A DNA stretch of 60,831 nucleotides, the filler included, from Hausera hauseri (lineage: Eukaryota), in the NCBI GenBank assembly GCA_046269625.1. It is 11 parts of 11 records of this genome, joined end to end, with 100 filler letters (N's around TTAATTAATTAA, not from the genome) between each part and the next. Parts side by side here need not be neighbours in the genome. Positions count along the whole stretch, not along the records: positions 1 to 4,903 come from JBJURY010397145.1; positions 5,004 to 9,217 come from JBJURY010696549.1; positions 9,318 to 14,721 come from JBJURY010261732.1; positions 14,822 to 21,931 come from JBJURY010037445.1; positions 22,032 to 26,138 come from JBJURY010758319.1; positions 26,239 to 30,947 come from JBJURY010465911.1; positions 31,048 to 37,962 come from JBJURY010052219.1; positions 38,063 to 45,312 come from JBJURY010027449.1; 3 more parts are not named here. One strand, 5' to 3'. The notes beneath the pieces were generated by a model. The model had not been told where the DNA came from. It worked only from the letters and a program-made list of their open reading frames with translations, and did no database searches. Below are positions 814 to 39,833 of the stretch, piece after piece. Position 1 is the first letter of the stretch, and each line of letters opens with the position of its first letter. Both the position numbers and the translations under genes were made by a program.

Positions 814-1133
814 TGTGGTGCCCACAACGGCCAGTGCCCTTTGGCCAATTTAATTAGGCACGGCAGGGCGTCCGCTGCCGCTATGTCGGGCCCATGGGCG
901 GTTCTCGATCTCCTGCCTTGAAAGAAATTACGACGTACTCTAACGAACTCAAATGTGCCTCAGTACGTTATTGTTCCATTCCGAATCACATAATATGTAC
1001 GTTTCAAACCACTATTCTCTGCAAAACGAGTGTGGTCCATCACTGTGCATTTCTGCTGCGAAAGTCTCCCACATCATTCCACGGGATCTCTATGAATTTC
1101 GTCCTACCGAATCCCTCACGGTAATTATACACA
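814..1133 (+). repeat. Probable 3' LTR of the Gypsy element
   Basis: Starts TGTGGTGCC (compare TGTGATGCC at 17472 and TATAGTGCC at 39833, minus strand) and ends ...ATACACA. No PPT or second LTR is visible. Confidence 0.5.
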
Positions 1134-2090
1134 ATCAAGCATGAATTGAAACGAGGCCAAAAAGAAAACGATATTTCATATGCTTAATTGGAGAAAATTT
1201 AACAAACTTCTTCAAATAAACGGAAAATCGTTGGAGAATACTCTCGAATCATTGCAACTCGAAGGAGAACAAAAACACACTAAAGAAAGAATTAGATAAT
1301 CGAATAAATACCTAATCGTATCATTAACTTACGAATATTCACAATGATCTACGAATAGCTACAGCTTCGAGCTGTCAAAAAGTCAACAAAAGACCAATTA
1401 CCAGCAAATATAACTGTTAATAATGATTTAGACCAATCTGACTTTGATCTTTCCGGTCCAAAAGGTCTCTTCGGAAGTAACGACCCTGTTAATCTGTTTT
1501 CCGAATTGCAATGCACTGAAATAAATCAGCTTATTGATGAAATGAAAAAGCTGAAAGAGAAGAAAATCTGAACTGCTACGCCAATTGAATGAACTCAGAC
1601 ATCAATTGGATGATAGTCAAAGAGATGCTGTCCAACGACAGGAAAGTATCAATGATTTACAATCGCGGCTGGATGTTTTGGCCATGTTTGACAAAATGTT
1701 TGTTGGCGAAAGTGGTGATATGATCGAATCTGTTCAAGGTAATTCATAGGAAGAACTTAGTTAGTCGAAACTTCATGAAGAAATTGTTAAAATACGGAGA
1801 CCAGTCAGACAACTTAAAAATCGATATAAAATGGGTTTAAAGTAAATATACAGTATGCAACATGAGTCAAAACGTTACCACACTCGAAAAAACGTTGACC
1901 GAAGTTCCAAAAATGAAGATGAAGGGAAGCAAGAAATAGCCCGATTTCAAGAACAGTATGATACATTGAAGAGTGATACAAAATCTGATACATACAACAC
2001 AAATGATCTTAAAGAACTTTATAAGAAGTTGTCCAAGTACGTGAAAGACTCTGATTTGACCAATGATCAGAAAGGAAATACCAATGATTC
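1134..2090 (+). pseudogene. BICD: Bicaudal-D (dynein adaptor) coiled-coil fragment, intronless, with stops and frameshifts
   Basis: IKHELKRGQKENDI...KSLENTLESLQLEGEQKH/KKELDNRIN; VNLFSELQCTEINQLIDEMKKLKE..LLRQLNELRHQLDDSQ; DLKELYKKL. These match BicD LKHEIKR / LEEALETL..ERE.K..LKKEL / DLFSELN.SEI.KL / ELAQLY in order. Confidence 0.75.
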
Positions 2091-2099
2091 CAAGCCCAT

Positions 2100-2884
2100 T
2101 AGTAATAAAACTCGTACAAATCTATTGGTTGTTTATCAACAAGATATTTATTCAAATTTGTAGCATGCACTAAACAATGATGTCAACCACGAACTCATTA
2201 CTAGTCCAAATAAATTGCATGTTTTGATGGCATTTTTGAAACGTCCTCATTTGTATTCAATCTTTGGCCTTCGGATTTCTTTCGGGTTTAAAAGACTTTA
2301 TAAATTAGTCCAGGATAACGAAGAGTCTTTACTTACTCGCAAAAGGTTGTTACGGTTTCGGAATGATATTTTGAAAATGTCTAAGCTACCAAATGCCAAC
2401 CCATTATGGATTGGTTGTAATGGAAGCCAACCGCATTTACATCATTATCCTTGTGGACTATGGACAACGTTTCACACGTTGACAGTCAGTCATTATTTGA
2501 AGGTTAAATCTGGAGTGCATGAAGATGAAGGACAATTACTTATTAAAGCGATAGTTCAATTTATTACAGTTTTCTTCTCTTGTCGAGAGTGCTGCAAATT
2601 TCAAGGTCGAAACGAAAGACTACAAAGAAAAAGTACTCAATGATGAAAGTGCTATCGTTTATCTATGAAAGGTACATCATAACGTCAATAATCGTCTATC
2701 CGGCAAACCATCAGACGACCCAATAGCACCTAAAATTGCGTTTCCATCTGCTAAAGATTGTCCGAGATGCAGAGCCAGTAATGGGTCGAAATGGCCTTCC
2801 GAAGAAAACTGGAATAGAAAAGAAGTATTTAAATTTCTAGCGAGACATTATTCACGTGTTGAAAAACTGCGATTGCTTCAATGA
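2100..2884 (+). pseudogene. QSOX: Quiescin sulfhydryl oxidase (QSOX) helix-rich + Erv/Alr domain fragment, intronless
   Basis: VYQQDIYSNL; WIGCNGSQPHLHHYPCGLWTTFHTLTV; FFSCREC (redox CxxC); KVHHNVNNRLSGKPSDDPIAPKIAFPSAKDCPRC. AATAAA at 2931 followed by an A-rich tract. Confidence 0.9.
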
Positions 2885-3096
2885 TTAGACATATTCAGTG
2901 TGATTGATCTATGAGGATACTTTATGAATGAATAAAAAGAATTTGTTTTAATGTATTAAAGACAAAAAAATAAATACATTTTGAATTTTGAATTAGCAAA
3001 TTGTTGTATCCATTTTGGAGATTTTTATTCAGTTGATTTTTGGTTTTGCCTAATTTTATAATTCTTGTTGTCGGAATTTTTTTACTCTCGATCGAT

Positions 3097-4050
3097 GGAT
3101 ATTGTGCAGTTTTTAACTAATATTGGAGTATTAAAAGTCGATGTAAGTTTTCAAATTTTAACATTGAAAATCCAAAACAGATTGGTTTTTCATTGATAAT
3201 TTTGGTGTCAATTCACCTTATGAACAGTTTGATCGAACTTTTGAATTATTGTCTATCTTTTTATTGGATACATTTTTAACGCGGAAGGTTGACGAAGTTT
3301 TAATTAAAATTTCGAAAAGAACAGATTTTTCTAAACGAAGTGTATTTCTGTTTTATCTGGAAAATCTATAGTCTCAATCCCAATCTCAAGCATCCATTAC
3401 GGACAGCAATACGGAATATGCGTCCCAACATCTATTCTAGTGAGGAAATCGCCGCATTTTACATTGGAGATTTTGCAAATCTGGAATTAAGTGATAATTT
3501 CCAGGATACCATTCCTGACTTTAATACATGGTACAAAAATTCAATTGGGAAAGTCTAAGTTTTCAAATTTTTTCATTGAAAATTTGTGCGTAACAGAGAA
3601 CAAATTGAGAAAAAATACAAATCAAAAAGGTACAAAATGGGTAATATTTAAACAAAAAATATTACAAACAACTGTTTTTTCTGTGGGCCTATGTAAGCAC
3701 CACAATTTCCTTTCGAATTTTCCAAGGACCAGGTAAATATTCAATATACGTTCCATTAATAACCTTGTTACCAGAAGTCATTTTACCAGATACGCAATTG
3801 CAACGAAAGACAGAAACTAATACGATGCCTCATTGAAAAACCGTCATTGCTAAAATATTCAACAACTAATCCCGAGAACTTCAATCTCCTTTCGACCAAA
3901 CTAGTCACCAAAATATTACTGCTCTAAAGATGAACGGAGAGAATGAGGATTTCAGAGGAGTGTACGGGAAACATGGCAAAGCAGGTAAAAATCTATTATG
4001 TCCATTAAAAGTATTAATAGTGGTATATAAATCGCTGTTGTTTACAATAG
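3097..4050 (+). other. Unidentified possible host gene fragment with short GT-AG introns
   Basis: Candidate introns at 3143-3180, 3553-3596 and 3733-3774 separate open segments (e.g. ORF 3340-3558). No family recognised. Confidence 0.3.
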
Positions 4051-4215
4051 AATTTTAACGAACAAAATTATAAGGAATTTTAAGAAATTGAACTGAATCA
4101 TTTTATTGTAATTATAATGGGTGTTCACTAAAAATGAGAATGAATTGAAAGTGTTAACTTTTTACATTTAGAATGATTAGCAAGACAAAATAGTTTCACA
4201 TATAAAATTCATTAT

Positions 4216-4903
4216 TCATTGATCTTGAACAACACGATGCCTTCTAATATAATACAATCTAGAAATTGCAGATTGTGATAGTATTTGTATGAGATCTTTG
4301 TCAATCTTTCTTAAGCAAAGCTTTATTCTATTCTTCAGTTGTTCAATATTTATCGCTTTCCAACCATTTTTGTAAACATCTCTTTTCAAAATAGACCAAA
4401 AGTTCTCAATAGATCTTGCTTCTGGTAGATTGGCTAGGTTGTCATCTTTTGCAACAAGTGATATTTTCGGACTGCAAAATCTCAACAACTTTCTTTGAAT
4501 AATGTGACGTTTCCAAATCAGGCCAGATAAAATGGAATATTGGAATGATGGTTTTGAATAAATGGAAGCAAAGGCTTCCGTATGTATTCATTAAGATAAA
4601 TAACTTGGTTGATGGCAAGTCCACTTAGCACAAAATATGGTCTTGATATTCTATTGGAAGATATCGCCAACCACATCATGATTTTTTGCTCAAACTTTGA
4701 TTGATCTTGGTATTTGACTTCTGCACTTGTGTAGAATATACAACCTTCATTAAATGTACTGTGATAAAGTAAAAAAATTTCATCATCAAGTATCAGTCGC
4801 ATAAGTCGTTCACACTTGGTTTTTGCAAGCTGTCTTTGGGCTTCTGTTCTCTTATGAATCTTAGTTTTCCATCGTTTTTGAATTGTAGATTTTATTTTGA
4901 TTA
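4216..4903 (-). mobile_element. Tc1/mariner (IS630-Tc1) transposase remnant
   Basis: LILDDE...KFEQKIMMWLAISS...FIFWPDLETSHYSK...NLPEARSIENFWSILKRDVY, i.e. DDE residues, frameshifted. Confidence 0.85.
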
Positions 4904-5003: not shown

Positions 5004-5702
5004 AAAATCGAAAAATGTAAAAGCGTAGAGGGATAGAAAACCCTATATGCAGAATCCGAATTTGATGTCAGATATTAAAAAAGAGGCTTAAATGAAAAAG
5101 CCGATTTTTCGATCGATTTCGAATATTCGAATAATACTGTCAGATTTCCCATATACGAAAACCTTTGTATACCAAAAATTGGGTGTGCAAAATATTTATA
5201 AGTGTCTGAAAATGAATAAAACATTGAAAAATTCGATAATCGATCAAGAATAAATTATTGGAATAATCTAATCATTACATTCGATTGCCTATATATGAAA
5301 ACCATGTTTAAATTTTAAATATGGCGCTGTAAAATGTATACAATTGATACATTAAAACAAAATGTTCTAGAATATTAGGAAATATGATACGTTGCCTGAT
5401 TTACCCTGCAATATATATTTTTTCTTACACCATCATGATTACACTACTAGATTCTCCACATTTAAAAACCTTAAATAACCTACCATTTGCGTAATAAGTC
5501 AAAGTAGTGTATTTAAAAAAGGCATTTAGAGCTAATTTTCAAATGTATATAAACAATAGGTATCCAAGTCAGTTTGTTTTACTGCATCAAAATTATAAAT
5601 AATATTTTGAATAATCAATAAAAAGTAATCTACATTATTTCCAAAAAATTGTACGATTTTGTTCTTCATTGCTCTTATTATTAAAGATGTTTTTAGTATT
5701 CT

Positions 5703-8322
5703 CCCATGAAAGGCAGCTCCTACATATCGCTTCCTGAATGGATAGTTAAGAAAAATGCATGCACCAATGTCCATAATGAAGACAGCATGTGTTTCATGTA
5801 TTCTATTTTGTCAAAACTAGTCCAGGATCAACATAATGCTTCCCGAGTTTGGATATATGACAAAGTGTAGCACACATACAACTTCACCTGTATTCCTAGA
5901 TGAAGTCGCGAAATTTGAAAGCATTAACAACATCTCCATCAAAATCTTCGGACTGGAGGATATATTTTATCCTTTACATGTATACAAGGAGGAATTGGAG
6001 GATCATAGGGATCTGCTCCTGATAAATGATGGAGAACGAGGCATTTCATCTGGATCAAGATTTTTGAGCGCCTCGTAGGATCCCAAATATCCAAGCATAA
6101 ATCAAGGCTGGAAATATGCGAGATGCTTTTCCCATTTTAAAGGGGAGACAACCGCAGAAAAGCTGGTGGAGCACAAGACCTACTGCAATATAAACTATTG
6201 CAACCGAGCAGAATTCCCCAAGGAGGATTACCTGGAATTCAAGGAGTTCGAGAAGATGCAAGTGCCGATTGTCATAGTGTGACTTCGAGGCCATCCTCAG
6301 CCCAGTTCACAGCTGCAGCCCCAATCTGCAGCAAAGCAGTACCATAAGTTATCATCATACTGCATGTATGTCAAAGGACTGGACAAAGAAACCTACCTAT
6401 ACATGGGTCTAAATGCAGCAGCACATTTTATGCAGCGTCTGGAACAGTATGCCCACAAACTTGAAGACGTTGCAGCAGCATAAGGGCTACATGATGTCGC
6501 AGAAAGAAAAATGTTAATGGTGCAAAGCAGCAACATTCTACCTATACAAAAAGCTATTCACATGGGACAATTACAAAGTCAGGGATCACTTCCATTTTAC
6601 AGGCATATACCAAAGCGCAGCATGCAACAATTGCAACTTACGCTGCAAGACATGTACATATGTTCCCGTGGTATTCCACAATCTTAGTGGATACGATTCC
6701 CACTTCATTGTTCGAGAATTTGGTAATATTGAGGGGAACATTGATGTGATTCCAAATAGTGAGGAGAAGTACATCACCTTCAAGAAGCATGTGGGCCGCA
6801 TCACATTTCGCTTCATTGATAGCTTCCGCTTCATTAGCTCGTCACTGGACAGCCTCGTGAAGAACCTTCCAGCTGATGAACTCAAAGAGACAAGGAGGTT
6901 CTTCCCAAATACATTTGACCTGGTGAAGCGGAAAGGAGTGTTCCCCTATGATTATATAACGTCACTGAAAGCACTGTATGACGAAGCATTACCGACCAAG
7001 GAGGACTTCTATAATTAGATGTCACAGAGTCATATTAGCGATGCTGACTATGAGCACGCTCAAAGAATATGGCAGACCTTCCAGTGAAGGAAAATAGGGG
7101 AATATAGTGATATCTATTACCTCACAAATATGCTATTGCTTACAGATGTCTTCGAAAGCTTCTGGAATGTAACCCTTAAGAGCCACAAGTTAGATCCATC
7201 CCATTTCTTTACAGCTCCAGGAATGAGCTGGGCGGCGATGCTGCGCTATACTGACATAAGGCTCCAAATCTTGAAGGATTACAGTATGGTCCTTACGGTT
7301 GTGAGAGGCATCAGGGACGGAATCTGTCAGGTCATTTACAGGTACAGTGAGGCCAACAACAAATACATGACAGATTATGACCCATCCAGGGTATCCAGCT
7401 ATATAACATACCTGGATGCTAATAACCTCTATGGATGGGCAATGAGCAACCCATTGCACTATGATAACTTTAAATGGGTCGAGAATCCTGAAGACTTCCC
7501 AATATTGGACCTAGATCCCACTGGAGATGCAGGCAATATACAGGAGGTGGATGTGGAATACCCACAAAGCATCCACACAATTCAAGCTCTATAACAACTC
7601 GGTCTTTGGCAAAACTACGGAGAACATCTGGAACCGGATAAACATCGAGCTGGTATGTGACTGGAAGAGGTCAAAGAAACTCATCGCTAAGTCCAACTTC
7701 CACAGCAGCACAATTTACACGAAGAACCTGGTGAGCATCCATATTGTTAAGACATCACTTGAGTTCAACAAGCCTATATATGTGGACATGTCCATATTGG
7801 ATCTATCCAAGACCTTGATGCATGACTTTCATTACAACATCATGGTCCCCACATTCAAGGAGCTCCAGCTAATGTACATGGAAACGGACAGTTTCATGTC
7901 CCAGATCCACACAGATGATGCCTTTGAAAAATTTGAAAAATTGATGCAGTATATGGATACCTCGGACTATCCGAAGGATCATCCAAATTATTCAACTGCC
8001 AACAAGAAGGTCCTCGGGTGAAGTTTAAAGACGAGGTGAATGGGAATATCATCACCCATTTCGTGGCGTTGAGATCAAAAATTTATGCCATCGATATGCC
8101 ATCGGAGTTCAAAGGGCAACATTTGCTAAGGATATAAGCTTTGCAGATTTTGAGAGTGTTGCGGGAACAAACTCACATAGTCAGCGAGATGAAGAGGATC
8201 CAGTCCCGAGAACATCAGATGGATACGATTGTGTTACGAAGAAAACCCTCTATTGGTTCGATGACAAAAGGCACATTCTTGAAGACGGAATCAGCACACT
8301 GTTTCATGGACATGCTACACTA
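5703..8322 (+). pseudogene. polB: Polinton/Maverick protein-primed DNA polymerase B (copy 1), frameshifted and internally deleted
   Basis: GSSYISLPEW..KNA..NVHNED..CFMYSIL; RDHFHFTG..AACNNCNL; VFHNLSGYDSHFI; FIDSFRF; KGVFPYDY; YLDANNLYGWAMS; KLYNNSVFGKT; YMETDSF; KFKDEVNG. Confidence 0.93.
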
Positions 8323-8575
8323 ATGTAAATATGAACATTATTGTTGTACTTATTATACATGACTTGTATTTTTATACCAATAAATGTTTGTTATAATAAT
8401 TGTATCGAGTTTTTAATCATATAATGTGGGATATAGAATAAGGCCAAGTAAAACTAAGAAACTATTATATAGAATAACACCCAGTAAAACTTAGATCAAT
8501 AAAATCAATAAATGTAAAATTTGAATAATCAATACAGTACGACATTTACTTGCATTAATTTTGCATTATTTCAAA

Positions 8576-8790
8576 ATGTTGAAAACTTATCCGATTTGTT
8601 GGGAATAGATGTCGGATAAAATAATGACATTGACGACATGCAATACACATACTTTCTGTATAGGCTGTCTGCAGAAATAGCTAAGCAGTAAAATGTCTTT
8701 TCCGCTATGCAGAACAAAGTGCGAGTATGTGGTAGTCGAGGATGCTGAAGACCCATGCCTGTATGTAAAATGAGTAGTAGTCATGGTAAA
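8576..8790 (+). pseudogene. Small RING-finger (C3HC4-type) gene next to Polinton PolB
   Basis: ATG at 8576: MLKTYPICWE*MSDKIMTLTTCNTHTFCIGCLQK*LSSKMSFPLCRTK. RING spacing with two Cys decayed (to Y and F) and the conserved W read as a stop; followed by an acidic DSDSDS stretch. Confidence 0.7.
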
Positions 8791-9317
8791 ACCAATACAT
8801 GAATTCTTACCTGACAGTGACAGTGACAGTGATTATACGATTATTATGTAATTGTTATTCAATACATGTTTTTTCATTATATGCTTTATCTCATAAAAAC
8901 CAACTAGTTTCCATAACACATTTATTTCGTAGCAATATAACTTTGACATAACGCTAAACACTATTTATATGCACAATGTGAACCATGTTCACGATAAATA
9001 CATGTAATGTTCTTTGATATAGTTACCAATTTGGTACATTCGTATGCACATATTCGAAATTCTGGAAATGCGCTATTAAGTACCTTCTTTCGACCATCAG
9101 CATGGTGTTTGACATAGAACATGGATTCATTTATATTACACATATTTCCAATATCTCGCATAAGGCAATCGCTGCAAAACAGGGTATTATATTCTTCTCA
9201 AGTAAATTTGTAGATCGNNNNNNNNNNNNNNNNNNNNNNNNNNNNNNNNNNNNNNNNNNNNTTAATTAATTAANNNNNNNNNNNNNNNNNNNNNNNNNNN
9301 NNNNNNNNNNNNNNNNN

Positions 9318-12300
9318 ACAAAAACAGCCGCATCCCTTCAACAACAACAACAACCAGTAGGAAAAGTAAGGCATCAACAAGTCTGGATAAATACATCAGA
9401 ACCAGTACTCAGCTGCAAGAGCAACAGAGGGATCAGCAGGATCAGCAACAGTAAGAGGAACAGATACAACGGGAATCCGACATTAATGTTAAGTACGATC
9501 TGAACAAATCGTACGTGTGCATAAAAGCGAACATGTCGGCGAAAACAACAACGCAATTGAGACATGTTCCGCAAAATGTTCGCAACCAGGTGGAATCAGA
9601 AGTGGAGAAATTCAAACACCACCAATACTGCAAAGTGCAATATTATGCACTTGCACAATTTGAAAACGTTGAATGTGACAGGAAACAATGGTACCTGTCA
9701 CATCAAGCTGTACCATACGCCGAAGATTTCATCGCCCACGTAGGCGAGAAACTCGAGAAAATCGCTAACTACACGGAAAAGGGTAGTGGATGACGAATTA
9801 TACGAATTGTCACCCTCGGCTTTATCATAACAAAGTCGAGCGATATAATATATTTGTCCGGGCGATCATTCATACCGACACCTGCATCTTTGAAGCAGTC
9901 TCTGGCGGTAGTTAATGTAAAAAATACTAACGATGAATACTGTTTTCTTTACAGTATTCTCGCGGTATTGAAATATGACGAAATGGACAGACATAGTACA
10001 TCTCGTCCAAAACAGTATCAGAAATTTTTCCAAATTGGATTTCGATGAAAGCCGGATGCCAATGAAACTGAAATCCATTCCGGCTTTTAAACGGCGTAAT
10101 CCGACACTGGCAATCAACGCGTTCCGGTACAACACAATCGTAAAAATACCGGCGGATGAAGAAATTTACAAAAATCATGATGTGGATATAATCTATCGTA
10201 GTCGGAACCCAAATGAACGCTCAGTAAATTTGTTACTACTGGAACAAAAAGAAAAATACCATTACGTTGCACTGACAAATCTGGGCAGACCACTGAACAT
10301 GGAGCATGATCATTTCCTTCAAAACGAATACCGTGTAAATGGTGTCCTGTATGTCTTCATGGATTCAGGTCAAAAACAACATGGGAGAAACATGTGACGC
10401 TGTGCAGACAAAATTCGTCAGGAACCACAATGTCATGCCCGTCAAACAGGAACTCAGGTTCACTGATTGGTCAAAAACAGACAGTTCGGCATATGTAGTA
10501 TATGAGGATATCAAAGCTATTTTACCACGGCACAACATATATGACCAAAAACATGTCCCAATAGCCGTCGGTATATTAATTGTCCCAATAAAAGCCGCAG
10601 GTCAACCTCAATATTGATTTCCACGGATGAAATTGTGTACGCGATTTCTTGCAGCAGTTGCAAACCATAGCGGAAACTTAAATCGCACCCTGGTACAGTA
10701 GAAATAGCAATAAACCCTTAATGTAGACATGAAGATGAACACCTGACGTTTGCAGTCGCAGATGAACGTTACCTATATCACAAAATATTACCGTTCGATG
10801 CACTGGAACGGCTCGTACCAGATCACGACCATTTTACGGGTCGATATCTCGGAACTGCATGCAATTCATGCAATTTGGCAAGGCGTGCGCGGCCATTCCT
10901 ATCAATGGTATTTCATAACTTCAGGAGTTATGATTGTCACCATATTCTGAAATGGGCAATAAACTGATTTCCGCACTGGGAACTATCCATAATTCCGACT
11001 ACAATAGAGAAATACCTGTCACTGTCTGCTCGTATAAACCGGTTCCAGGTACGATTCCTTGACTCATTGCAATTTCTCAATGAATCATTGGCAAAGCTGG
11101 TAAATGCCTTGCAAGATGTGCCTATAGTACTTACGCAGTTCCCCGCACATATCGCACGTAGCAAAGGCACATTTCCATGACTTTGCAACACCGTATGAGC
11201 GAATTCGGATAGCAGAGCAATTACCGTCGCGATGGACAGCCATCGCAGATGATGAATACCGGAATAGCATAGAGGTATTGGACAGAACTCGGCTTCAGAA
11301 ACATGTTGGATTACATGCTCCATTATCTTAAACTCGACGTGTACTTATTAGCCGATGTGTTCCAAGCGTTTCGAGCGAAAGCGTTGGCTAAAGATAGGCT
11401 AGAGCCACTCAACTTTTATTCCATATCGGGAATGAGTTTGGGGTCAGTTCTAATGTCACTGGGTCAAGATTTTAGGCTGCTGCAAGATCCGGAAATGTAC
11501 CGACTGTTTGATGTTGGTATTCGCAGCGGCATGACATTTGTCAACAAGCATCCGGTTAGTGCTACCGATACAACATCACTGCTGTACATTAATATTAATA
11601 ACCTGTATGGCTGGGCGCTTTCGCAACCCTTGCCGTACGGTTCATTCGAACGGGTTGTCGACAGACAAGATCTGGACGACATAATGGTCAACCTACCACG
11701 AGTAGACATGGCAGGATCAGTCGGATACCTGATAGAGGTCGATCTCGTGGTATCGGATGAGTTGCATGACGTTTGGGACAATTTACGGGTCGCACCATTT
11801 AACCAAGGTCTGACAGGTTCAAAAGTGAAGAAACTGCTTATTACGCATGAGCCAAAGTTGAATTACGTGGTCCATTGGCGTCGCTACAGTTATACATGCA
11901 GCTCGGTGTACGCGTCACACAACTGCATCGTACAATCCGATTTGTTTAGGCTCCCATATTCAAGGCGTGCATAGATGGAAATTCGGAGAAACGAGCCGCA
12001 CTTGTACAAAGTTCGAAAAGGACTACTACAAGCTGAAAAACAATTCTCTGTACGGAAAACCAGTGGAGAATCTGAAAAAGCGGCTCAATGTGCGTCTACA
12101 TAACTCGGAAAAGCGGTTGGTCACGTACACGAGTAAGGCGCAGTTTCGGCGGTCAATGCACATTGCCGATGAATTGGTAGCGGGGCTGTTAAACAGGGAA
12201 GAAGTCGTTCTGGACCGGCTAAGTTACATCGGACAAGTTGTATTGGACCTGAGCAAGTTGCGAATGTATGAGCTACAGTATCGCGATTTGGCACGTTACT

Positions 12301-12759
12301 GGCAAATGTTCGACGGCTGAGATCAGTATCGTTGCTTTTTTATCAGTATCAGCTTTTTCCTTTAGCTGAAAAACGTCAATCGCGACGAACTGCTCCGACA
12401 AATGGTAAATGGACTACTTGACACGTCCAATTACCCGCAGAATCATCAGCTGTATAGCAACGCCATCACGAAGTGAAGGTCGTGTCCGGTATCGGAAATG
12501 GATATTTCTACGGCCAAAATGTTAGCCTTTGACATGACAGTGGACCGAAAATTGGCGCCAAAGGAGTTCAGTTGGTTCAGACAGAAATCGGCCACGCTGA
12601 TTATCGACGTATCTATGAAGCGTCAGGAGGACAATCAACCGATCGATTGAGCACCCGTTGTATACGGTGACCAATACAAAAATCGCTTTATCATGCAATA
12701 AGCGTAAGTGGGTGAGGCGAAATAAGAGTTGGACGTACGGATATTGGCGTTTGGAATAA
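9318..12759 (+). pseudogene. polB: Polinton/Maverick protein-primed DNA polymerase B (copy 2) including N-terminal region
   Basis: EKGSG*..LSGRSFIPTP..VVNVKNTNDEYCFLYSIL; DHDHFTGRYLGTACNSCNL; FHNFRSYDCHHI; FLDSLQFL; YININNLYGWALS; KLKNNSLYGK; VLDLSKLRMY. Confidence 0.92.
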
Positions 12760-14008
12760 AATATGCATGAATTCGGTGCTGATGATACAGACAGATCAAA
12801 TTACTGACAATTCATTGTGATCTCTCTGTTTTGTATAAATAATATTGTTCTTTGTTTTTGCCTTTTGTTTTTTCATCATTTAATTTATCTATTTAATTTA
12901 ATGTATCGAGAAACAATATGAAAAACAAACAAAATCAATAAAATTTATTAATCATCATAATCTAAAATCAAAAACAAAGTTGAATCAGCGTAAACTTTAC
13001 CAGCTTCCATATTTGTGATTTAACGCCGTGCAGATCCTTGTATCCTTTCAACTTCAATGTTAGATAACCTTTACCTCCTTCCGGTGGCCAAACTGCTTTT
13101 GCTGCTCTTTCTCCGCCATGTGAACTGACAATTTTCACCATATTCCCTGAGAAAAATCGACGATGTCTCGGATATCGCTAGTCAACACCAAATCACTCAA
13201 CTTTTCTAATTGTGTCTTCCTTTGTATCTAAATCATCGTCGCTGATCTTTTTCACCAATAGACCATATTTCACCGGTTTAATTTTAACTGTTTGTGTCAA
13301 TGGCAGTTGAAGAGTTGCACAGATAATGTAAGTTGTATCCATTATACAACCGGGAATTTCAGAGCGAATATTCGCTGTACCGTGGCTTTTTTGAGACTCG
13401 CGGAACTGTCACCTGCTGAATTATTTTCCAGAAATTTTTAAATAAGATAAACGTGAAATGAAATTGCACCCATATTTATATCAAATTTGTTCATACCTGT
13501 TTGTTTTCATTATAAACAATAGACAGTTACTTTGTGAGTATTGTCTCATCGCAATGATGCATACCAGTTAAAATTACCTCCACGTCGCTGAAGCCCATGA
13601 CACTTTCGTTTCGTTAATGAAGTCATTCGTAATAAATGTGTACAATTTCCATTATAGCACATTTAAATTCTGGACATTGGTGGGTTACTTTGGTTATTGA
13701 TCGGATTTGGTCAATGACAATTCCGAATGGCAGTAGTTTATTGTTACTATCAGCTGTGATTGGTTTGCGACAAACCATAATACGATACTTTCCCGATTAA
13801 AATATGATGCATGTAAAATTCGTTGGACACTTGAGGACATACTGCCTCGGTTTCCATTGATTAAAAGGTAGTGTTAATGACACTCGGTAACATGTCCGCG
13901 ATAGTTGATATTAGCTAACATTATGGAAACAGTGTTTATACTACAGCTATTTATGTGTGTAACACGAATATAAACAAAACTTGTGAGGAAAGGTTAATTG
14001 TTGTTCAG

Positions 14009-14640
14009 ATGAATCTGCAGAATGTTGCAATTTTTCAGACTGTAGGCCCCAGTAAAAGTGGCAAAACACACTTTGTGTAAACTATTGCAGACCTACTGTA
14101 ACATATTCCATTCACTGCGGTACAATCACATCCTGGCATCAGGGTGTTGTTGATAATGGTGAGTCCGGTTTGACACATCGGGAATTTTGTAAATTAAAAT
14201 CGATAACGGCAATTGATGAGTTTGATGAGAACTGGTCTGAACGATTATGCAACAGTGATGTTATTTTCATTGACGATTTATTTCAAGAGGCAACGAAATA
14301 AACCGACTTCAACAACCTGTTCACGAAGATTGCATGACGCCGTGATGTGACGGTTATATTCATTACGAAAAAAATGTTCCATCAGAGCGACCAGCATCGA
14401 ACAAGAAATCTATACGTACACTATTTGGTGTTGTTCAAAAATCCCCGTGATCAGACTCGTTGATTATGTTGTACAAGCATTTCCTCACAATCGAGCCTAC
14501 TTGAAAGATGCATATCATGATTCAACGACCGAGCCACACGGATACTTGTTCAGCGACTTTACACAACAGTGTCCCGATGACATGCATGCACGAACAGACA
14601 TTTTCAATCAGAAAGGTGCGTGTCTAAACAAATTCAAAAA
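14009..14640 (+). pseudogene. Polinton packaging ATPase (A32-like)
   Basis: Walker A GPSKSGKT, Walker B VIFIDD, then LFTK..RR.VTVIFIT, RT..L..HYLVLFKNPRD and AYHDSTTEPHGYLF.DF. Confidence 0.9.
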
Positions 14641-16929
14641 TCGAAGACGCGACAGCGATAAAATAAAGAATTTCCGAAAAACAATTGTTATACGTAAACC
14701 TACCAAGCGGGTGCCGGCGAGNNNNNNNNNNNNNNNNNNNNNNNNNNNNNNNNNNNNNNNNNNNNTTAATTAATTAANNNNNNNNNNNNNNNNNNNNNNN
14801 NNNNNNNNNNNNNNNNNNNNNTGCCTTAATTAATACTATCATCAGAGTTTATTACAGCAAATAGTATATCAATTCCATATCAATAGTTTTGTCCTGACAT
14901 CCGAATTTGACACAGAGGGAATTCGACAATACATGATACAAGTTCTTCTACACAGCTTTAATAGAAACCACGATCAACCCAAAGGGATAAAAGTAATTGA
15001 CGAAGAAGTAATTAACTTGATGCAAGCAAGCACTCTAGAAATTTATTATTATCGATACAATTACATGATGAAAGAATGGACACAATTTTTCAGAAATATG
15101 GAGTGGAGTGTAATGTAGTATATGGTACTAGATGGACCAATAGGATTACGGCCTACGTAGGATTAACACAAGTGGATTTATTACAGAACGAAAGAGGATA
15201 CCTAATAGACTACTTAGTAGATTTGCCAAAAGAAGAAGTCTCGGTACTAAAATGTCTTGTCAGCAATATCTTACAATATGTATGAACAAATTATCAATAT
15301 TAAACAATATTTAAAAAACAAGAGGAATAAATTCCGAGGTCCTATCAGAGATAAGCATACTTGGATAAAAATGGAAGAAAATATTAGTAAATTCCATAGA
15401 CTTATCTTAAATTTCACACTGAAAAAAGAACATATTACTAATGGAGGCTCTACCAAGTCAGAAAAATTAAATTACAATTGAATCAACTAATTCGGAGAAT
15501 AGTATCACAAAAGAAAGTGTTTCGATGAGACAGCAAGGAATGAAGCCAAAACTCAGTCAAGTAGTATTATTTCCCTGTATCTTAGCACTATGTATGACGA
15601 ACGTATCGGCACAATCAACCACAAAACCCCCATTAATTTTGAGACAACCAACAATCACCTACAACAATCATTACAGCCAGTCACCCCTACAATCTAGCTA
15701 TTTAAAGGAACAAATGAATTCAAGATGGTCGAAAACACCAATCGACCGCGAGAAAGTTTTGCTTGCAATTCTCAATATACTTGTGTAATTATAGTGGATA
15801 CAACCGATAGAAAAAAATTCCAATACATATTACTAATATATATATACCAAGTTTAATAGCACAAACAACTGAAATATCTCTAAAAGTGCTAAACCTAACC
15901 ACCACTATTCTCACCCAACAAAAGTCACAAACCATATTTCAAGATTATGCTACATTACCGGAAAATACCATATTTGAATTAAAAGATTATCTGTCTTTCA
16001 GGTAGATCCTTGGAGTAATAAGGTATTTCATCAGTTAAGATATTCTTAATATCTTGTTTGATATTTTGAGTTATATATTTTTCCTCTCTATCATTTTTAG
16101 TAAGTACTGGTCGTTCCTCTTTACTCGCTTTTAAAAGTTTCTTTTAGCAAAACATGGTTAGAAATTCTTCACTATCGGCTTTTGTTGCTTCTAGGGCTTG
16201 TTTTATCTACTGTTAATGGTTTATTAGGATCAGTTACATCAATTTCATCCATTCGTTTAAGTATGGTTTCTGAATAGATTTGTTTGATTCTTCATCAATA
16301 TTCTGCTTATTGAGGCTTTCGTCTAGGTCCTTAAGAGATTCAATCTTGAAAAATAAAACAGCGGTACCAAGATTTATTGAGAGAGCCAACTGTTAAACCT
16401 TGTAATTTCTAAACACTTTTCATGCGATAAATACCAGAAAATGTGTAGAAAAGTGTAAATTCCAACACAGAACGAGTAGACGCTAAGAACAACAACTTTA
16501 TTTAATATATTTTAAAAACCTCTAACGATAACCAATTTACAAATTGATCATTTATTTTTTTTTTACAAANNNNNNNNNNATGTTAAATTCCAGTGTAAAT
16601 TCCATATAAGTCACGATACACAAAATGCCGACAAAAACGATGACAAGATTTATTATTCAATCAACAATATTCAATAATTCTCATCAATTTTTTTACAAAA
16701 TCTTTATACAGTCTTGATTGTTTCTTTATAGCGACCGGTCTTTGTTAATCATTTGAATTAAGAATTTTTATAGTTCTGACTAAACACCCGTCGTGTTGAA
16801 CAAACTTCCCGTAAACTATCAAAACTTGTTGATTCTGGAAAAGACGTTTTATAATTGTTTTGCTTTTTTTAATTTTATTATGCTTCATATCTCCATTTCA
16901 ATCCTTTCTCTAAATTTTGTCTGTCACTT

Positions 16930-17281
16930 TTTCAGAAATGGTACCAGAAAAATCTAACTGATCTGGTATACGATATTGTAACTGTACTCTGTTTCGTACA
17001 TCTGATACTGATACAAGAGACGATAAATATGCAACATTGTCGATAGTACCTCGTATTTATCTATTTTTGGGCCTTGCCGTAATGGCCAATAACATGCTTA
17101 AGACGCGCACTGTACGAGCAACAGTCTTTGGACTTGGGTGTCTAAAGCCTTTAAGTAAATGTCCAACTAGAAAAAATGGAAATTCTTTTGATCACATTGC
17201 TAAAATATTCGGCCATTGATAAATTTCCTTTCGTTCTGATGTCTGCATCATTTGGTTGGCGAGAATATTCACGTTAAACAA
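16930..17281 (-). pseudogene. NF1: Neurofibromin (NF1) C-terminal region fragment, intronless
   Basis: FFLVGHLLKGFRHPSPKTVARTVRVLSMLLAI..DKYEV..NVAYLSSLVSVSDVRNR matches NF1 FALVGHLLKGYRHPSP..VARTVRILHTLL..DKFEV..SVAYLAALLTVSEEVRSR. Confidence 0.88.
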
Positions 17282-17472
17282 TGTGATTATCTTTAATGTC
17301 ATTTATTTTGATCGGTCTTGGTTAGGGTTTACTTGGGTTATTCTTGTACTGGCTGTAACTGGATTGTGGTGATGTGTTTTGATCTTTTCGAATCCACTTT
17401 TAGCTGCTGACGGATAATAAAATATTTATCAATGCAGACAGATTGTGTGGCGCCCGAGTCCGCGGCATCACA
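17282..17472 (-). repeat. 3' LTR (191 bp) preceded by a polypurine tract
   Basis: Perfect TGTGAT...ATCACA termini; PPT CCGGGGGTAG at 17473-17482 (minus strand); internal AATAAA. Confidence 0.8.
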
Positions 17473-17659
17473 CTACCCCCGGTACGAAAAGACGCTGTAA
17501 GAAGATAAAAATGTAAAAAGGAGAAAGTAAAGAGACAACGGTGTAAGCGAACTAATGAATCTTTGTATGGGCGAAACGTTGAATTTTATCGGTATGTTGT
17601 TCTCTGCTGTATTTGCTGAAGATAACCGTATTGCTTTGTTTAACGTGCTGTTTAACTGT

Positions 17660-19042
17660 CTACTGACATGGTTGAGATGAAATTAGGTTTTGATTTGACA
17701 CGTCAGCAGTTTGAGAACTGGTCGGTATGTCGTTTAGTGTAGTGTTTTGAGTTGATGCAGGTCTTGAAGTAGCAGGTTGTCGTGGTAGTAGAACGGAATA
17801 AGAATTGAAGAAGTCGAGAAAGGTTTTTGAAGACTCAGCTGATGGGTGTGGTGTATCATTAACAGAAAATGCAGATTTCACGTTAGATATGTGAACGTTT
17901 TGTTCCTTATCATTTTTTAATATCGTAACCGTACGTGAGGTAACGTCGAGGACTATAAATGGTCCTACGTAGTTTGGTTAGAAACCGGAGGGTGAAGGGT
18001 TTTTTAACCACACGAACTTTGCATTAAATAATGAGTCAGGTAAATATGCTTTGTCGCCACGTACTATTTTGCAGAAAGAATCCAGGCTTAGTTGAACGAA
18101 GTAATATTTTGCTCACCTAACTGTTTCGTCATTTGGCGTTTTGTCTAAATCGGTGAGTTCAAAAAGTGCGCGAATTGTAGTACCGAAAAGTGCTTCAGCA
18201 GGTGCGCAACCGGTGGTAGTAGACGGCGTATTGCGCCACCCCAGTAAAACGAAAGGGAGGGTGGTTGCCCAATTCTTATATGTTTCGGCTAGGACTTTTA
18301 ATGAGACCTTGAGAGTGCGATCAAAGCGTTCCAATAAGCCGTTCGACTGGGGATGGTATGGAACTGTGTATTTGTGACTTATGCCCAGTCGCCTAACTAG
18401 AGATTTGAATAGGTTTGATTCAAATTGGGGACTTTGGTCTGTAATTATATAGCGAGGTGAACCGAACCGGCAAATCCAAATCCTTATGAATGTGTTGGCA
18501 ATGGAGTCTATATTGATGGAGCGCAAAGGGACGGCTTCAGACCAACGAGGCGTGCGGTCCATCATTGTTAGGATGAATTGGTGTCCATTATCCGAAGGTA
18601 ATGAGCCAATGATATCTATGTAAACTGACTCAAAGCGGGATGTACATGGGAAATGTAATAATGGTGGTTTAAAATATTTAGTTACTTTTAACTTTTGGCA
18701 AGCTACGCATTGCTTAACCAAACTCTGTACGTCAGACCTCACTGATGGCCATGTTACATTACGTTTCAGGAGGCGGAATGTAGCCTTAAAACCTGGGTGA
18801 TGCAAAGAATGAACATATTGAAATGAAATTTGTTGGAGAGGAGGTGCCAAAATTGGAAAATATTGTCCAGGTGTCGAAGTATCCATGGCTATTCCATCGA
18901 TGATTTGCACGGATTTGTATTGTTTCAGAATTTCATTAGATGGGGAATTCTGGATCAATTGTTCCTTGGAGAATATAGGCGTGACACTGATTGCACCGAC
19001 TGACCATGATAGGCTGAGCATAGTAAAGACTGTTGTTGTCAC
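17660..19042 (-). pseudogene. pol: Gypsy integrase (HHCC, DDE, GPY/F)
   Basis: HSLHHPG...CVACQ; IDIIG; IITDQSPQFES; YHPQSNGLLERF; downstream YVGPFIV. Stop at 18113. Confidence 0.92.
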
Positions 19043-19149
19043 GACAGTGGTTTGATTGGACTTAGCGTGTGAAACGCTAGAAATCGAGTCGCTTAAATCG
19101 TCTTTGTGAACGCTATTACCGGACTGCTACAAAAATGTTGGATTATTTA

Positions 19150-19300
19150 TTAGTTAATGAGGAAATTGATTGGTTGATTGGGTTTGGATGTTAAGGACGC
19201 TTTTAGTGTGAAGACAGCGTAAGTACGGCTACTAGATTGAGGAAGTTTGCCTGTGCCAGTATGCGCCGAAACATCTAGCAGCTTTGTCAGTTTTTTTTGA
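19150..19300 (-). promoter_or_regulatory. Putative gag-pol -1 frameshift signal and truncated protease start
   Basis: AAAAAAC immediately before the gag stop, then a candidate stem GCTAGATG..TTCG..CATACTGGC. The -1 frame reads ...YAVFTLKA..PINFLIN* and breaks at the FLID(T/S)G position. Confidence 0.6.
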
Positions 19301-20460
19301 TAGTAGGATTTGGGGAATCGGAAGAATTACTATTGAATTGGTTAAGTCGACTGGAAAACGTGCAACTCTTGATGCAATTTCGGGCTTTATTGCTGAACCT
19401 ATTATGATAAATGCAAATAATATCAGATTTTTGGAAAGCTGGTATAAAGAATTTGCTTCCTAAGCAACATTTACTCGATTGGTTCTTGAATTTAGTGTGA
19501 TAATAGCACACTATAGGTCGAGTAGGGGAACTAGCGGATCTAGAATTGTGCGATGAGGAGCGGCTATGATTAGGTGTGAATCGATCTCGTGGCGGCATGG
19601 ATAAATTGTCCAATTTAGAAGTTAGAGCAGAAATAGCTTGGTGTACTGCCGTGTTTTCAACCCGTAGAGCGTTTATTTAGTTATTCAGCGCTACAATTTC
19701 TGCAGTGGGTGGTGTAATAGGCAATTGTAATGTGGCTGCGACAATAGGAGTATGGTGCGTATTTAGTATTTTATAGCTTTTATCAGCCAGTTGTGCTAAC
19801 TTTCTAACGTAGCGGTGTATTCAACGACGGTTAGTAAAGAGCGTATTTCTTTTGGTAACGATTGGAGAAAATATCTGCGCAGTAAATCAGCGTTGTTGAT
19901 TTGGTTCAATCCCAACTTGTTTAATTGGGTCAAGGATGTTTGTAAAAATTCGGAGGGTTTTAGTGTGCCTATGGTGTTTTCATTGAAATATTTCTGGATA
20001 ATGTTATCAAGAGAAGGCTCGGTGATTTTAAGGACAGCGTTGAATAGTGTTTCGTATGGGTTTGCGGTCTGAAAAATTTCGGAAAGTTTTGGTAGTAGCG
20101 ATCTAAAGTTGTCTGGTAGAAGTATTAATAGGCTATTGGACTTGAAGAAAGGGTCTGTGATCTTCTTAGATTTTAGCCACTGTTCATGGAATTCCAGCCA
20201 TGTACGGCCGGAATGTTGTTTATCTGTGAAATAGTCGACGCAACGGAAATTGACCAAAGAGAATGATATAGGTAGGACTAAAGGAGGCTGCTTTATTGGA
20301 ACGTGTATGGTGGGAATATCGGTGTGTTCCTGAGGGTCGTTTAATGCAGGTTTGGTGTCGGAACCACCGAATAGGCGTGGACATAAAGTTATCATTAGTG
20401 GTGAAGGTGGGGATAGAAAGGATAATAATAGATGGAAATAATGGAGATGGTATCAGTTTA
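19287..20460 (-). pseudogene. gag: Gypsy gag with two Cys-x2-His nucleocapsid motifs
   Basis: PYETLFNAVLK; IGTLKPSEFL; LLRRYFLQSLPKEIRSLL; CYYHTKFKNQSSKC and CIYHNRFSNKARNCIKSC. Confidence 0.85.
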
Positions 20461-20809
20461 TGCTTAGTATGTAGCCTTTTAAGTTGATGAGATGAGCCAC
20501 ATCTACGAACAAATCTGTTACTGTTACTTTAGTGTGTGTGCGGTATGTGTGAATGTTTGTTTTGAAAGAAAAGATAGATAGATAAAAAAATATGTATCAT
20601 TTTAGGGGCATAGTGCGTCACAGGGCACACGGTCGCAGACGAAATCCCAGCGTTGTAATTGTTGATCTGTTCAATCAGGGTGGTAAACATTAGGAAGGGC
20701 GTTCTGCGCTTCCGGCATGGTTGACGTTTGACTGCGTCTAGTTTTTTAAAGTCCCTTAGGCTTTCATAATTAAAAAGGGTGTCGTTCCTGTCTCTGTTGC
20801 CTTTTTTGT

Positions 20810-21316
20810 TGTCTCGTAAGTTCGTTGAATGTTCGTGATTGGCATTTTTTATATTCAATGGGCATATTCAGCAAAAGGATTCTTGGATTTTCGACCCCCC
20901 CTTTCGCATTTTTGGATGAACAATGTCCTTTTTAACTTTACACCATACACACCGATGGAATCTTCGATACTTCCACCAGAGATCTTATGTACGTTGGCAT
21001 AACGTGGAATGTTGGTTTCCTTACAATCATTTTCAGCTGTCATGATTATTGAAACTGCATCTAGTGCAATTTTACAGGTCCTATAGGACCATTTACTAAC
21101 GAATTTTGCACCAAGACAGTTTTTGACGACTTTCAATAATTCGTCGTGATTATTCGGATTGATTTTCACACAGCAATTAGTTTTCACGAATTCCAACGCG
21201 TCATTGAGTGTTTCTGTATATGAACTAGTTATTTTGGTTAAATAGATTTTTTGCTTCAAGCACGGTGCTGCTTGAGACAACAATTTACGAGCTAATATTA
21301 TGACAGAAGTTGTTCC
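20810..21316 (-). pseudogene. CCT3: Chaperonin CCT gamma (TCP-1 gamma) fragment, intronless
   Basis: GTTSVIILA..; KFVSKWSYRTCKIALDAV; KETNIPRYANVHKISGGSIEDS; after frameshifts KDIVHPKMR..VENPRILLLNMPIEYKK. Confidence 0.88.
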
Positions 21317-21931
21317 ACCCAATTGTAGTGCACTACCAAGGTTTCGTTTGCGCAATTTTAGTGCCAATTCTATGTGAGCTTCATTGTTTCTATATTCGTT
21401 AACAGTTTTCGTTAATTCCTTGAAAATTTCCAGACCTTTACAGTCCATTTTATTGAATTTGTCTGATTTTGTGTAATATATTACGGCGTAACGCTTCTTG
21501 TTAATCGACAAATACGGATAATAGACTTTTTTGAAATCCAATTTGATCGGAGCAATGAAATGACCGGTAATAAAATGGGCTACCTCTCGACCGAGTTTCA
21601 TAGCCGCCTGTACTGTATCAACGTCTAAATTGTTCATCACCGAATCAGTGTCCCCGTAGATAACCTTTACATCATGTGCATGTCCCTTAGACTTCGTAAA
21701 GTTTTCCTCGACTAACTATTTTGTTTTTTAAATCATAACTCGACCGTAACCAGTAAGTGATGATGAGATTGCTCCGGTAACTCTTGCCATTTCAACATGA
21801 TTTACAAAGCACGTGAGTTTATTTATTAATCGAATGGCCAAATAAGAATCTTTTAAACTATAGACTGCTAAACGACGGCGAGTTATTTCGTCGCCGTTTT
21901 GTAAACCGGCGATTATTTGATATGTCGCATC
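21317..21931 (-). pseudogene. POLD1: DNA polymerase delta catalytic subunit, three non-contiguous pieces
   Basis: [29 protein letters not shown] | [53 protein letters not shown] | IFKELTK..AHIELALKLRKRNLGSALQLG. Confidence 0.93.
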
Positions 21932-37962: not shown

Positions 37963-38269
37963 NNNNNNNNNNNNNNNNNNNNNNNNNNNNNNNNNNNNNN
38001 NNNNNNTTAATTAATTAANNNNNNNNNNNNNNNNNNNNNNNNNNNNNNNNNNNNNNNNNNNNTTATTAAGCCCCCACCGACTCAAATTGGTGTAGATTGA
38101 ATAATATTACAAATCATGAGGAAGAGCACTTAATAACCTACAATAAACAAATTTAAATTGAAAATTTGCGGTAACTGGTATTTAAAGTTTTTGTTTCTAA
38201 TTCTAAACTCCATTAATCCATTAATCAGTTAGTTTATTATTTTTATGAAAATGTCAGACTCGACAAATT

Positions 38270-39145
38270 TAAAGCCGGGCCAAAGAATGGAAATAATCGC
38301 AACTGGTATGCAAATTGAAAACTCAGGACGAAACGTTACCTATGTGGAAATACCAAAGAAGACAGGTTTCAATAAAAAACTTGCAAGATTTAATGTGGAA
38401 TCGAAATGATTTATTGTTGAAAACAGGAATATTATGTGATCGTGAAAAAGTAGATCAGGTCGTCCAGTTCACCAGTTATTTTCAAACAAACAAGACGTCG
38501 ATCATGCAGTTGCTGTATATGAAAATTAGGAATGTGGACACCATTTAAAAGATGCTGCCAACGAACTAGGAAGTACATTAAAAAGGTATTTGAAAAGCAT
38601 AGTTCCATGGAAAAAACACCAAAAAGAGGAGAAAAATCAGAATTATTTTGTCTGTGCTAAAAAGCTGCAATTTGCTCGAACACTGTTGAATAGACGGGGC
38701 CAATTAATATACTTATTTTAGAACATCAGATTTCTTGATCATAAAAACGCATGTATATGGTTAAAATTGGACACACCAACGTTAGTGTCGAAGAAAATGT
38801 TCAATAATATCATTAACACCCTTAATAGACGCAAAATGTAATCCCTCTGTCCATGGTATGTTTGTAGCAAATCAAATTGGTTGCGATGTTTATTTGTATG
38901 GAAAAACTAAACTGCATCCAAGAAAACAAGTTGAAAAATGGGTTTATGAAAAGGCAAACGAGCAATATTACTTGTGCCGTTTGAAAACCTGTGTTGTTCC
39001 ATTTGTGAAAGCAACAAATTCCAAAATTTTAATGTCAGATTGTGTGAATGCGAACCATACATTACAAATTCAACAATTTTTGTCTGAAAATGGAATAGAA
39101 TTGTATGGAAGCGCTGAATATCATCATCGGGTTGAAGATGCATAA
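38270..39145 (+). mobile_element. IS630/Tc1-like transposase remnant
   Basis: GRPVH; KKLQFARTLL; EQYYLCRLKTCVVPFV..ILMSDCVNANHTLQIQQFLSENGIEL (second catalytic D region). Confidence 0.5.
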
Positions 39146-39170
39146 CTGCCGTACTCTAACGGCTCTTCCA

Positions 39171-39310
39171 TTGGGTTGTTCGCAAAGTAATTTCGTTTTT
39201 TTTCTCAAAATGAAAGACGATATTTTTACAGTAAATATTTTATTGAATTATATATTGTCCATTCTGATCCAATATCTTTTGCCATCTTTCTGGCATGTTT
39301 AGATCCGACA
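39171..39310 (-). mobile_element. mariner 3' end with TIR
   Basis: MPERWQKILDQNGQY (mariner C-terminus), then the TIR TTGGGTTGTTCGCAAAGTAATTTCG at 39171. Confidence 0.75.
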
Positions 39311-39413
39311 CAAATTACAGATAATATTCCATAACGTTCGAAAAAAGCAAATATCGATTTATTTATTGCTTATTAATTACAACAATAATCTAACAATAAT
39401 AAATATCTAATTT

Positions 39414-39700
39414 CTACAGTAGTTCATACTGGCGCAGATGCATACGTTGAATGATATCCTTACAGTCATTGAACACCCGTCGAATGTTTTCAGTATCAAC
39501 AGCACATGTGAAATGAGAGTAGCAATAGTGCCGATCATCATTGCTTGTCGTCGTTATTTTCAAAACTTTTCTCTAAAAATATTTTGCTCTAGTAAATTCT
39601 AATTCTTCTACGTGGTTATAACACCGAGCTTCAGCTGGCAAGGTATATCGCGCATAATCAGGGAAGTAATCTTCAAATTTGGATCCTCTCTTAACACCAT
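39414..39700 (-). pseudogene. GNAS: G protein alpha-s C-terminal fragment, intronless, with native stop and 3'UTR-like AATAAA
   Basis: [72 protein letters not shown], the diagnostic Gs-alpha C-terminus. Confidence 0.95.
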
Positions 39701-39702
39701 AT

Positions 39703-39833
39703 TGTACGACGAGCATACTGTAACAAAAATAATTGCTGTAACATCGTTGAAGCACTGACTTTTAATACATGCGGTTGAAATTAGTGTGTCATTTGTTGAA
39801 GGCACGAGTTACATCCGCGACCGTGGCACTATA
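39703..39833 (-). repeat. Probable 3' LTR with upstream PPT
   Basis: PPT-like GGGGTGGTGA, then TATAGTGCC...TCGTACA; same position relative to integrase as the LTR at 17282-17472. Confidence 0.6.

Follow-up and report, generated by a model that had tools for sequence, protein, structure and literature searches.

The stretch of DNA analysed here (the window) comprises 60,831 nucleotides of the Hausera hauseri genome (assembly GCA_046269625.1) and is made up of 11 contigs of 4-7 kb each, with N spacers between them. Repeats are present in all 11 contigs, and Ty3/Gypsy elements, referred to as E1, E2, E3 and E4, are located in contigs 1, 4, 8 and 9, respectively. In three separate contigs, the 3′ region of one of these elements (E1, E2 or E3) runs on the same strand into pieces of host coding sequence (Table 1). 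Both the occurrence of three cases in three different contigs and the same-strand arrangement had been put forward by the original prediction and were borne out.

Homology searches confirmed, at the level of sequence similarity, pieces of NF1, G-alpha-s (GNAS), the sulfhydryl oxidase QSOX, POLD1 and CCT3 (TCP-1 gamma). The NF1 and GNAS identities had been predicted and are upheld by matches to human neurofibromin (E 7e-14) and to residues 301-394 of the human G-alpha-s chain (E 1e-36), the latter ending in a stop codon. Compared with the reference P0273, the NF1 piece shows 55% identity over 174 codons and reaches 16788. The orientation of a run of T beside the N gap at 16570 does not suit a poly(A) tail of NF1; past this 10-N gap, the stretch 14834-16569 contains broken open reading frames (ORFs) on both strands and yielded no Pfam match. 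An extra N-terminal G-alpha segment, which we had supposed to lie at 39810-39765, was not recovered by phmmer.

The remaining pieces go beyond the predicted list, with QSOX following the coiled-coil piece behind E1 and a POLD1-CCT3 fusion lying upstream of E2. With one internal skip, this fusion stays open over 286 codons in an ORF (21715-20858, minus strand) that contains both Pfam domains; the 3′ end of the CCT3 piece near 20830 was read by eye. In a tree of 45 POLD1 proteins, drawn from 120 retrieved, over ~200 columns, the POLD1 piece formed a long branch and did not place the host. Three of the four tool-verified host junctions are in frame. QSOX homology starts near 1976, directly after the coiled-coil stretch, and the stop codon at 2882-2884 may be natural or a lesion, as homologues extend further. 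No poly(A) tract follows the apparent 3′-untranslated regions (3′-UTRs) of QSOX and G-alpha-s, although decay could have erased one. The coiled-coil piece itself we take to be BICD-like from its resemblance. The predicted BICD identity, however, gained no support, as searches of Pfam, PDB, Atlas and representative sequences returned no BicD match. In the representative search, the best stretch lay in the QSOX part for all 150 matches listed. The top match, P0123, suggested a natural BICD-QSOX fusion; this candidate was rejected, as P0123 proved to be a QSOX whose Erv modules are repeated.

Table 1. Features of the element-host mosaics (positions along the window; LTR, long terminal repeat).
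Feature	Position	Strand	Basis or remark
E1 integrase C-terminal tail; contig begins within integrase	3..377	+	48-51% identity to E2 tail; 0 lesions in 86 aligned codons
E1 pyrimidine-rich 3′ spacer	378..813	+	aligns to E3 tail (1/300 shuffles), then jumps to LTR start motif
E1 putative 3′ LTR, start supported, end unproven	814..1133	+	start motif TGTGGTGCC; composition change point 1105-1144
Coiled-coil coding piece, heavily broken	1134..1975	+	translation; weak generic coiled-coil matches only
QSOX C-terminal half, no intron-sized insertion	1976..2884	+	Pfam Erv1 3.7e-5; named QSOX matches
Apparent QSOX 3′-UTR, two AATAAA, no poly(A) tract	2885..2975	+	sequence
NF1 piece	16788..17281	-	7 lesions in 174 codons; no intron-sized insertion
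E2 3′ LTR, start portion	17282..17472	-	NF1 junction between 17325 and 17282
E2 purine tract	17473..17480	-	homologous to E3 tract
E2 protease remnant joined to integrase; reverse transcriptase and RNase H deleted	17880..19288	-	Pfam rve, H2C2
E2 gag, tandem Cys-His motifs	19289..20339	-	full CX2HX9CX3C at 19415-19362
E2 unassigned stretch, element-like composition, possibly diverged LTR or leader	20340..20829	-	GC skew -0.31, like E2
CCT3 piece, in-frame fusion to POLD1	20830..21316	-	133 contiguous codons, E 1e-24
POLD1 piece, three segments	21317..21931	-	two in-frame internal skips, ~174 and ~52 codons
Apparent G-alpha-s 3′-UTR, AATAAA, no poly(A) tract	39345..39413	-	sequence
G-alpha-s piece	39414..39757	-	QCFN...RED segment, out-of-frame skip of ~45 codons (estimate), residues 301-394, stop
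E3 3′ LTR start, at most 76 nt	39758..39833	-	
E3 purine tract	39834..39843	-	aligned with E2 tract
E3 gag C-terminus, protease, reverse transcriptase, RNase H, integrase; N-terminal gag missing	40285..43800	-	Pfam RVT_1, RT_RNaseH, rve
E3 CX2HX9CX3C motif	43565-43512	-	

The association between E1-E3 and host coding sequence was assessed by one method over all contigs, a Pfam scan of 361 ORFs of at least 55 amino acids at E<=1e-4. Host-family matches occurred in all three contigs carrying E1-E3 and in none of the eight remaining contigs (Fisher p 0.006; 0.024 with the more distant E4 included as a member). Moreover, all five tool-confirmed host genes lie in sense orientation relative to the element. 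The fragments had been described as intronless, and indeed no intron-sized insertion is present in 916 aligned codons from five genes, although a loss of introns relative to the parent genes is not established by this count. Given a mean exon length of 289 nucleotides as in Gyrodactylus (PMC4040987), which may not be that of the host, ~9.5 introns would be expected and the probability of finding none is 7e-5; at 1-kb exons this probability is 0.064. The further claim that no 5′ part of the captured gene is seen at the other end of the element is informative for E2 only, as the E1 contig starts within integrase and E3 is without N-terminal gag.

According to the original prediction, the three elements were copies of one Gypsy family. 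Copies of a family usually share at least 80% nucleotide identity. The integrases of E1-E3 are 48-61% identical at the protein level, E2 and E3 share 68% identity over 578 nucleotides, and the putative LTRs of E1-E3, when compared with one another, gave no score above shuffles. The identities thus fall short of this threshold and, judged by their sequences, E1-E3 are three related families and not copies of one. E4 (contig 9, 45413-50792, minus strand) is more distant from E1-E3 (33-54% identity); it has a long integrase tail and a 3′ flank without a host piece or a clear LTR.

The Gag signature CX2HX9CX3C, which defines CsRn1-clade Gag (PMC2582038), is present in E2 and E3; the gag gene of E1 lies outside the contig. 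E3 shows the order protease, reverse transcriptase, RNase H and integrase, with a YIDD motif at 42153, and a search for the GP[YF] pattern yielded GPF at 17965 in E2 and no match in E1 or E3. By the Gag signature and these domain features, E1-E3 can be classed as CsRn1-like members of Ty3/Gypsy. Like the clade members PwRn1 and AgCR, they combine the Gag motif (E2 and E3), GPY/F in the integrase tail (E2) and a purine tract by the 3′ LTR (E2 and E3) with the lack of a visible env gene; unlike in that clade, the Cys-His motif is doubled in E2 and E3, and neither a tRNA-Trp site nor an LTR pair was found (PMC2582038). Upstream of E2 gag, the sole candidate for a tRNA-Trp primer-binding site with at most 4 mismatches (20369) is mismatched at 4 of 12 positions, and the window contains 353 such sites. 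Gene capture is not mentioned in the consulted sections of the account of this clade (PMC2582038). The tandem doubling of the Cys-His motif (E2, 19508-19362; E3, 43565-43431; both minus strand), in which the second copy is partial, could mark a sub-clade of E2 and E3.

The 3′ tails of E2 and E3 are collinear through the purine tract into the motif T(G/A)TRRTGCC at 17472 and 39833, a score reached by none of 300 shuffles, and the LTR starts of E2 and E3 are therefore sound. The motif also occurs at 814 in E1, and elsewhere in the window only at 47563. Hairpins at the three LTR starts were not significant (z -1.7, -0.9 and +1.9). In E1 the spacer is shorter by ~200 nucleotides, the purine tract included, which indicates that deletion after insertion occurs here. 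The host junctions are located ~75 (E3), 145-190 (E2) and 320 nucleotides (E1) downstream of the 3′ LTR start.

A second, 5′ copy of the LTR was sought for E1, E2 and E3 and none was found, the elements being truncated or cut by contig ends; therefore, no LTR end is proven. The best 5′ candidate, the region 20340-20829, weakly matches the E2 3′ LTR (13/300 shuffles; one of 15 pairs tried), and the ORF 20867-20532 gave no match in PDB and Pfam searches. The LTR ends that had been predicted fared unequally. The one at 39703 falls 54 nucleotides inside the G-alpha-s coding sequence, which starts at 39757 (Pfam; PDB E 2e-11), and has to be dropped. At 17282, a 6-bp inverted match to the LTR start speaks for an end, whereas NF1 homology may reach 17325, which leaves the site ambiguous. 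Anchored extension to this position was supported with P0274 (0/300 shuffles; 1/287 random segments), and the closer reference P0273 gave 34/300 shuffles; across the whole E2 LTR, NF1 homology did not exceed shuffles. The change point at 1105-1144 fits an end at 1133, but no 5′ LTR copy was found for comparison and CA is common there, so that this end is unproven. In fact, the dinucleotide occurs 22-33 times per 300-400 nucleotides around the putative LTR ends. As CsRn1-clade LTRs may end in AAA or ATA (PMC2582038), a terminal CA is not required. The proposed preferential integration into coding sequence presupposes an intact LTR whose terminal CA lies flush with the start of a coding sequence; this arrangement breaks down for E3, is ambiguous for E2 and lacks proof for E1.

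Taken together, the single strand, the lack of introns, the gene fusions, the internal skips, the missing poly(A) tracts and the restriction to the contigs of one clade point to template switching in an LTR-element particle (PMC5131818). We hold it to be somewhat likelier true than false that the E1-E3 mosaics arose when three families of a single CsRn1-like Gypsy clade carried out LTR-mediated retroposition, and that the products have since decayed. Among the options offered beforehand, the capture or joining of mRNA-derived cDNA thus fits best and is partly supported; it is strengthened because of the POLD1-CCT3 fusion, QSOX and the internal skips in POLD1 and G-alpha-s.

In this process, spliced host mRNAs would be co-packaged in the element particle, and minus-strand synthesis would transfer onto a host mRNA, near its 3′ end in the case of G-alpha-s and perhaps of QSOX. 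The enzyme may then skip forward within an mRNA, twice in POLD1 and once in G-alpha-s, and hop between mRNAs, from CCT3 to POLD1 and from QSOX to the BICD-like piece, before the reverse transcriptase would switch back, early in U3, to the RNA of the element. Within the LTR or next to it, the host pieces would then be carried as neutral cargo. More speculatively, cargo past the purine tract may be copied over further rounds with gag and integrase under selection, which would account for the heavier decay of NF1 relative to E2. Afterwards, deletions and insertions at the DNA level, as suggested by the loss of the E1 purine tract and of the E2 reverse transcriptase and RNase H, would erase the outer ends.

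Several observations weigh against this interpretation. Over 174 codons NF1 has accumulated 7 lesions, compared with 3 in ~720 codons of E2 (p 7e-4); NF1 and E2 therefore do not share a history of decay that began with a single event. Damage is lighter than in NF1 both in POLD1 (2 stops in 204 codons) and in QSOX (3 lesions in 237). A complete LTR-cargo-LTR unit is visible nowhere, a 5′ LTR copy was found for no element, and a search for an R-U5 remnant behind each cargo found none. Each host block is flanked by an element on one side, the far side being a contig end, a gap or unrelated repeats. Moreover, the cargo of E2 differs at its two ends (NF1 versus POLD1-CCT3), and beyond the gap that follows NF1 the scaffold does not lead into POLD1. 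E4 carries no host piece, and only four independent blocks stand behind the orientation count (1/16 by chance). Finally, as E1 is without its purine tract, some deletions took place after insertion, and the skips in the host pieces could be of the same kind.

The uneven decay is also what the main rival would make use of, namely a later Gypsy insertion into older retrocopy chimeras made by another retroelement, followed by deletions that removed most of the LTR sequence as well as the 5′ half of each piece that had been interrupted. It is in line with the much stronger decay of NF1 than of E2, with an E1 LTR that may be complete (change point 1105-1144), with the 6-bp inverted terminus of E2 at 17282 and with the evident DNA-level deletion, since the E1 purine tract and the E2 reverse transcriptase and RNase H are gone. 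However, strong targeting of rare retrocopy mosaics would be needed (three of three contigs versus none of eight), always in sense; furthermore, POLD1-CCT3 and not NF1 lies on the 5′ side of E2, and the E3 junction is not at the LTR end. We consider such an insertion somewhat unlikely.

Two other explanations dispense with capture at the three junctions or add to it. In one, the mosaics would represent DNA-level decay of a duplicated, gene-dense and intron-poor region, such as an extra haplotype, a B chromosome or a sex chromosome, with deletions fusing neighbouring genes and elements. While deletions are frequent here and the T-rich sequence after the QSOX AATAAA resembles what genomic downstream elements may look like, an intron remnant is absent from the 916 codons of five genes, the Pfam scan and the translations showed a host gene in none of the eight other contigs, and POLD1 would have to adjoin CCT3 with every piece co-oriented with the elements. 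The duplicated chromosome or haplotype offered by the original prediction, which needs an intron-poor host and the fusion of unrelated genes by deletion, is accordingly less likely, and we regard decay of this kind as quite improbable. None of the parent genes is present in intact form in the window. Alternatively, as the original prediction also offered, the contigs may derive from a unistrand locus resembling a PIWI-interacting RNA (piRNA) cluster, where transposon and retrocopy pieces of one orientation are selectively retained to serve as templates for silencing. Such a locus, to which we assign little likelihood, would be compatible with an origin by capture, and all host pieces and elements are indeed co-oriented. 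By contrast, remnants beside the mosaics that we take to be Mariner/Tc1-like transposases (39340-39165, minus; 38786-39142, plus; 4219-4903, minus) lie in both orientations as judged by eye, and the targets would be housekeeping genes; a Pfam search of these remnants gave no transposase match. A precedent is known from Plutella, where W-linked partial cDNAs by LTR remnants make silencing RNAs (PMC9674220).

The other contigs contain repeats of different types. Contigs 2, 3 and 10 are Polinton-like (5004-14721 and 50893-55857) and all broken, with matches to a protein-primed polymerase (Pfam DNA_pol_B_2 in contigs 2 and 3), endonuclease VII and, in contig 10, a weak adenain-like protease match. 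Contigs 5 and 11 presumably hold DNA-transposon remnants. Inverted repeat pairs of 84-92% identity are present in contig 11 (55960-56331 / 59248-58882) and contig 5 (23012-23073 / 25807-25745), and a further pair (25862-25999 / 51378-51241) links contigs 5 and 10; these are probably DNA-transposon ends. Gag-bearing elements reside in contigs 6 and 7, between which tblastx gave no match. The one in contig 6 (26240-30748, minus strand) has long Arg/Ser-rich ORFs along with ORFs without explanation. In contig 7 (31933-37960, plus strand), a retrotrans_gag domain with a CCHC knuckle and ORFs of 947 and 448 amino acids are followed by a Monjiviricetes-type fusion glycoprotein; the long ORFs gave a weak ubiquitin/SUMO-like match, the fusion protein is of mononegavirus type, and pol would fall past the contig end. 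This gene order resembles planarian Burro elements (PMC6431247) and suggests, as a guess, a flatworm host. An Rfam search returned no matches.

LTR-mediated retroposition has been described in metazoans as partial intronless copies joined to LTR elements without poly(A) (PMC5131818). Tan et al. (2016) reported retrocopies free of L1 hallmarks, chimeras of 2-4 genes and secondary retroposition, and, among 30 of the 238 'LTR' places in the supplementary tables, zebrafish retrocopies (Table S8) flanked by Gypsy LTR sequence, at least one of them on the 5′ side only (PMC5131818). The present mosaics resemble these cases in their partial copies without intron-sized insertions, the missing poly(A), the multi-gene chimeras and the LTR sequence on one side. 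In the Drosophila cases of that study, the retrocopy stands in place of a portion of the internal ORFs, whereas here three of three downstream junctions lie early in the 3′ LTR; the involvement of three families from a single clade and extra skips within the mRNA likewise distinguish the present mosaics from the cases given there (PMC5131818). The maize element Bs1 also carries a three-gene mosaic, but is a multi-copy plant element with element sequence on both flanks (PMC5131818). In barley BARE-2, foreign sequence similarly enters the LTR by abnormal template switching, although this plant element acquired another retrotransposon and not host mRNA (PMC13317346). Pxyfem of Plutella xylostella resembles the mosaics in its partial cDNA adjoining LTR-element remnants, in a transposon graveyard with the outer LTRs lost; it is multi-copy, antisense-acting and functional, whereas the pieces here are known from their sequence alone (PMC9674220). 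Finally, in yeast Ty1 retrosequences an LTR-element reverse transcriptase likewise copies cellular RNAs into the genome, there under experimental induction (PMC7175516).

The process itself is thus already published, and what is notable is its density, the shared junction region and the recurrence in one clade. Routine mRNA capture by a CsRn1-like clade was not found in the literature searched, nor was a paper on gene capture by Gypsy elements of flatworms, which does not establish absence from print. Retrocopies with diagnostic features number 3 in mosquito, 7 in zebrafish and 10 in chicken, about half of them LTR-made (PMC5131818); as LTR-mediated retrocopies are rare in the surveyed animals, the density here would be unusual. 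If the insertion came later, the window would represent an ordinary repeat graveyard with old retrocopies. A bolder possibility, which we regard as unlikely, is that a CsRn1-like sub-clade with the doubled Cys-His motif habitually switches to host mRNAs at the first strand transfer and keeps mRNA mosaics of several genes inside its LTRs over many transposition rounds. In that event, most copies genome-wide would bear host coding scraps in U3, the clade would act as an exon-shuffling vehicle, and the scraps might be a source of small RNAs against housekeeping genes. On the reading of LTR-mediated retroposition favoured here, finding within 61 kb three cases that involve no fewer than five genes, each next to its own family of the same clade, would suggest a lineage in which mRNAs are captured unusually heavily and switching favours one region.

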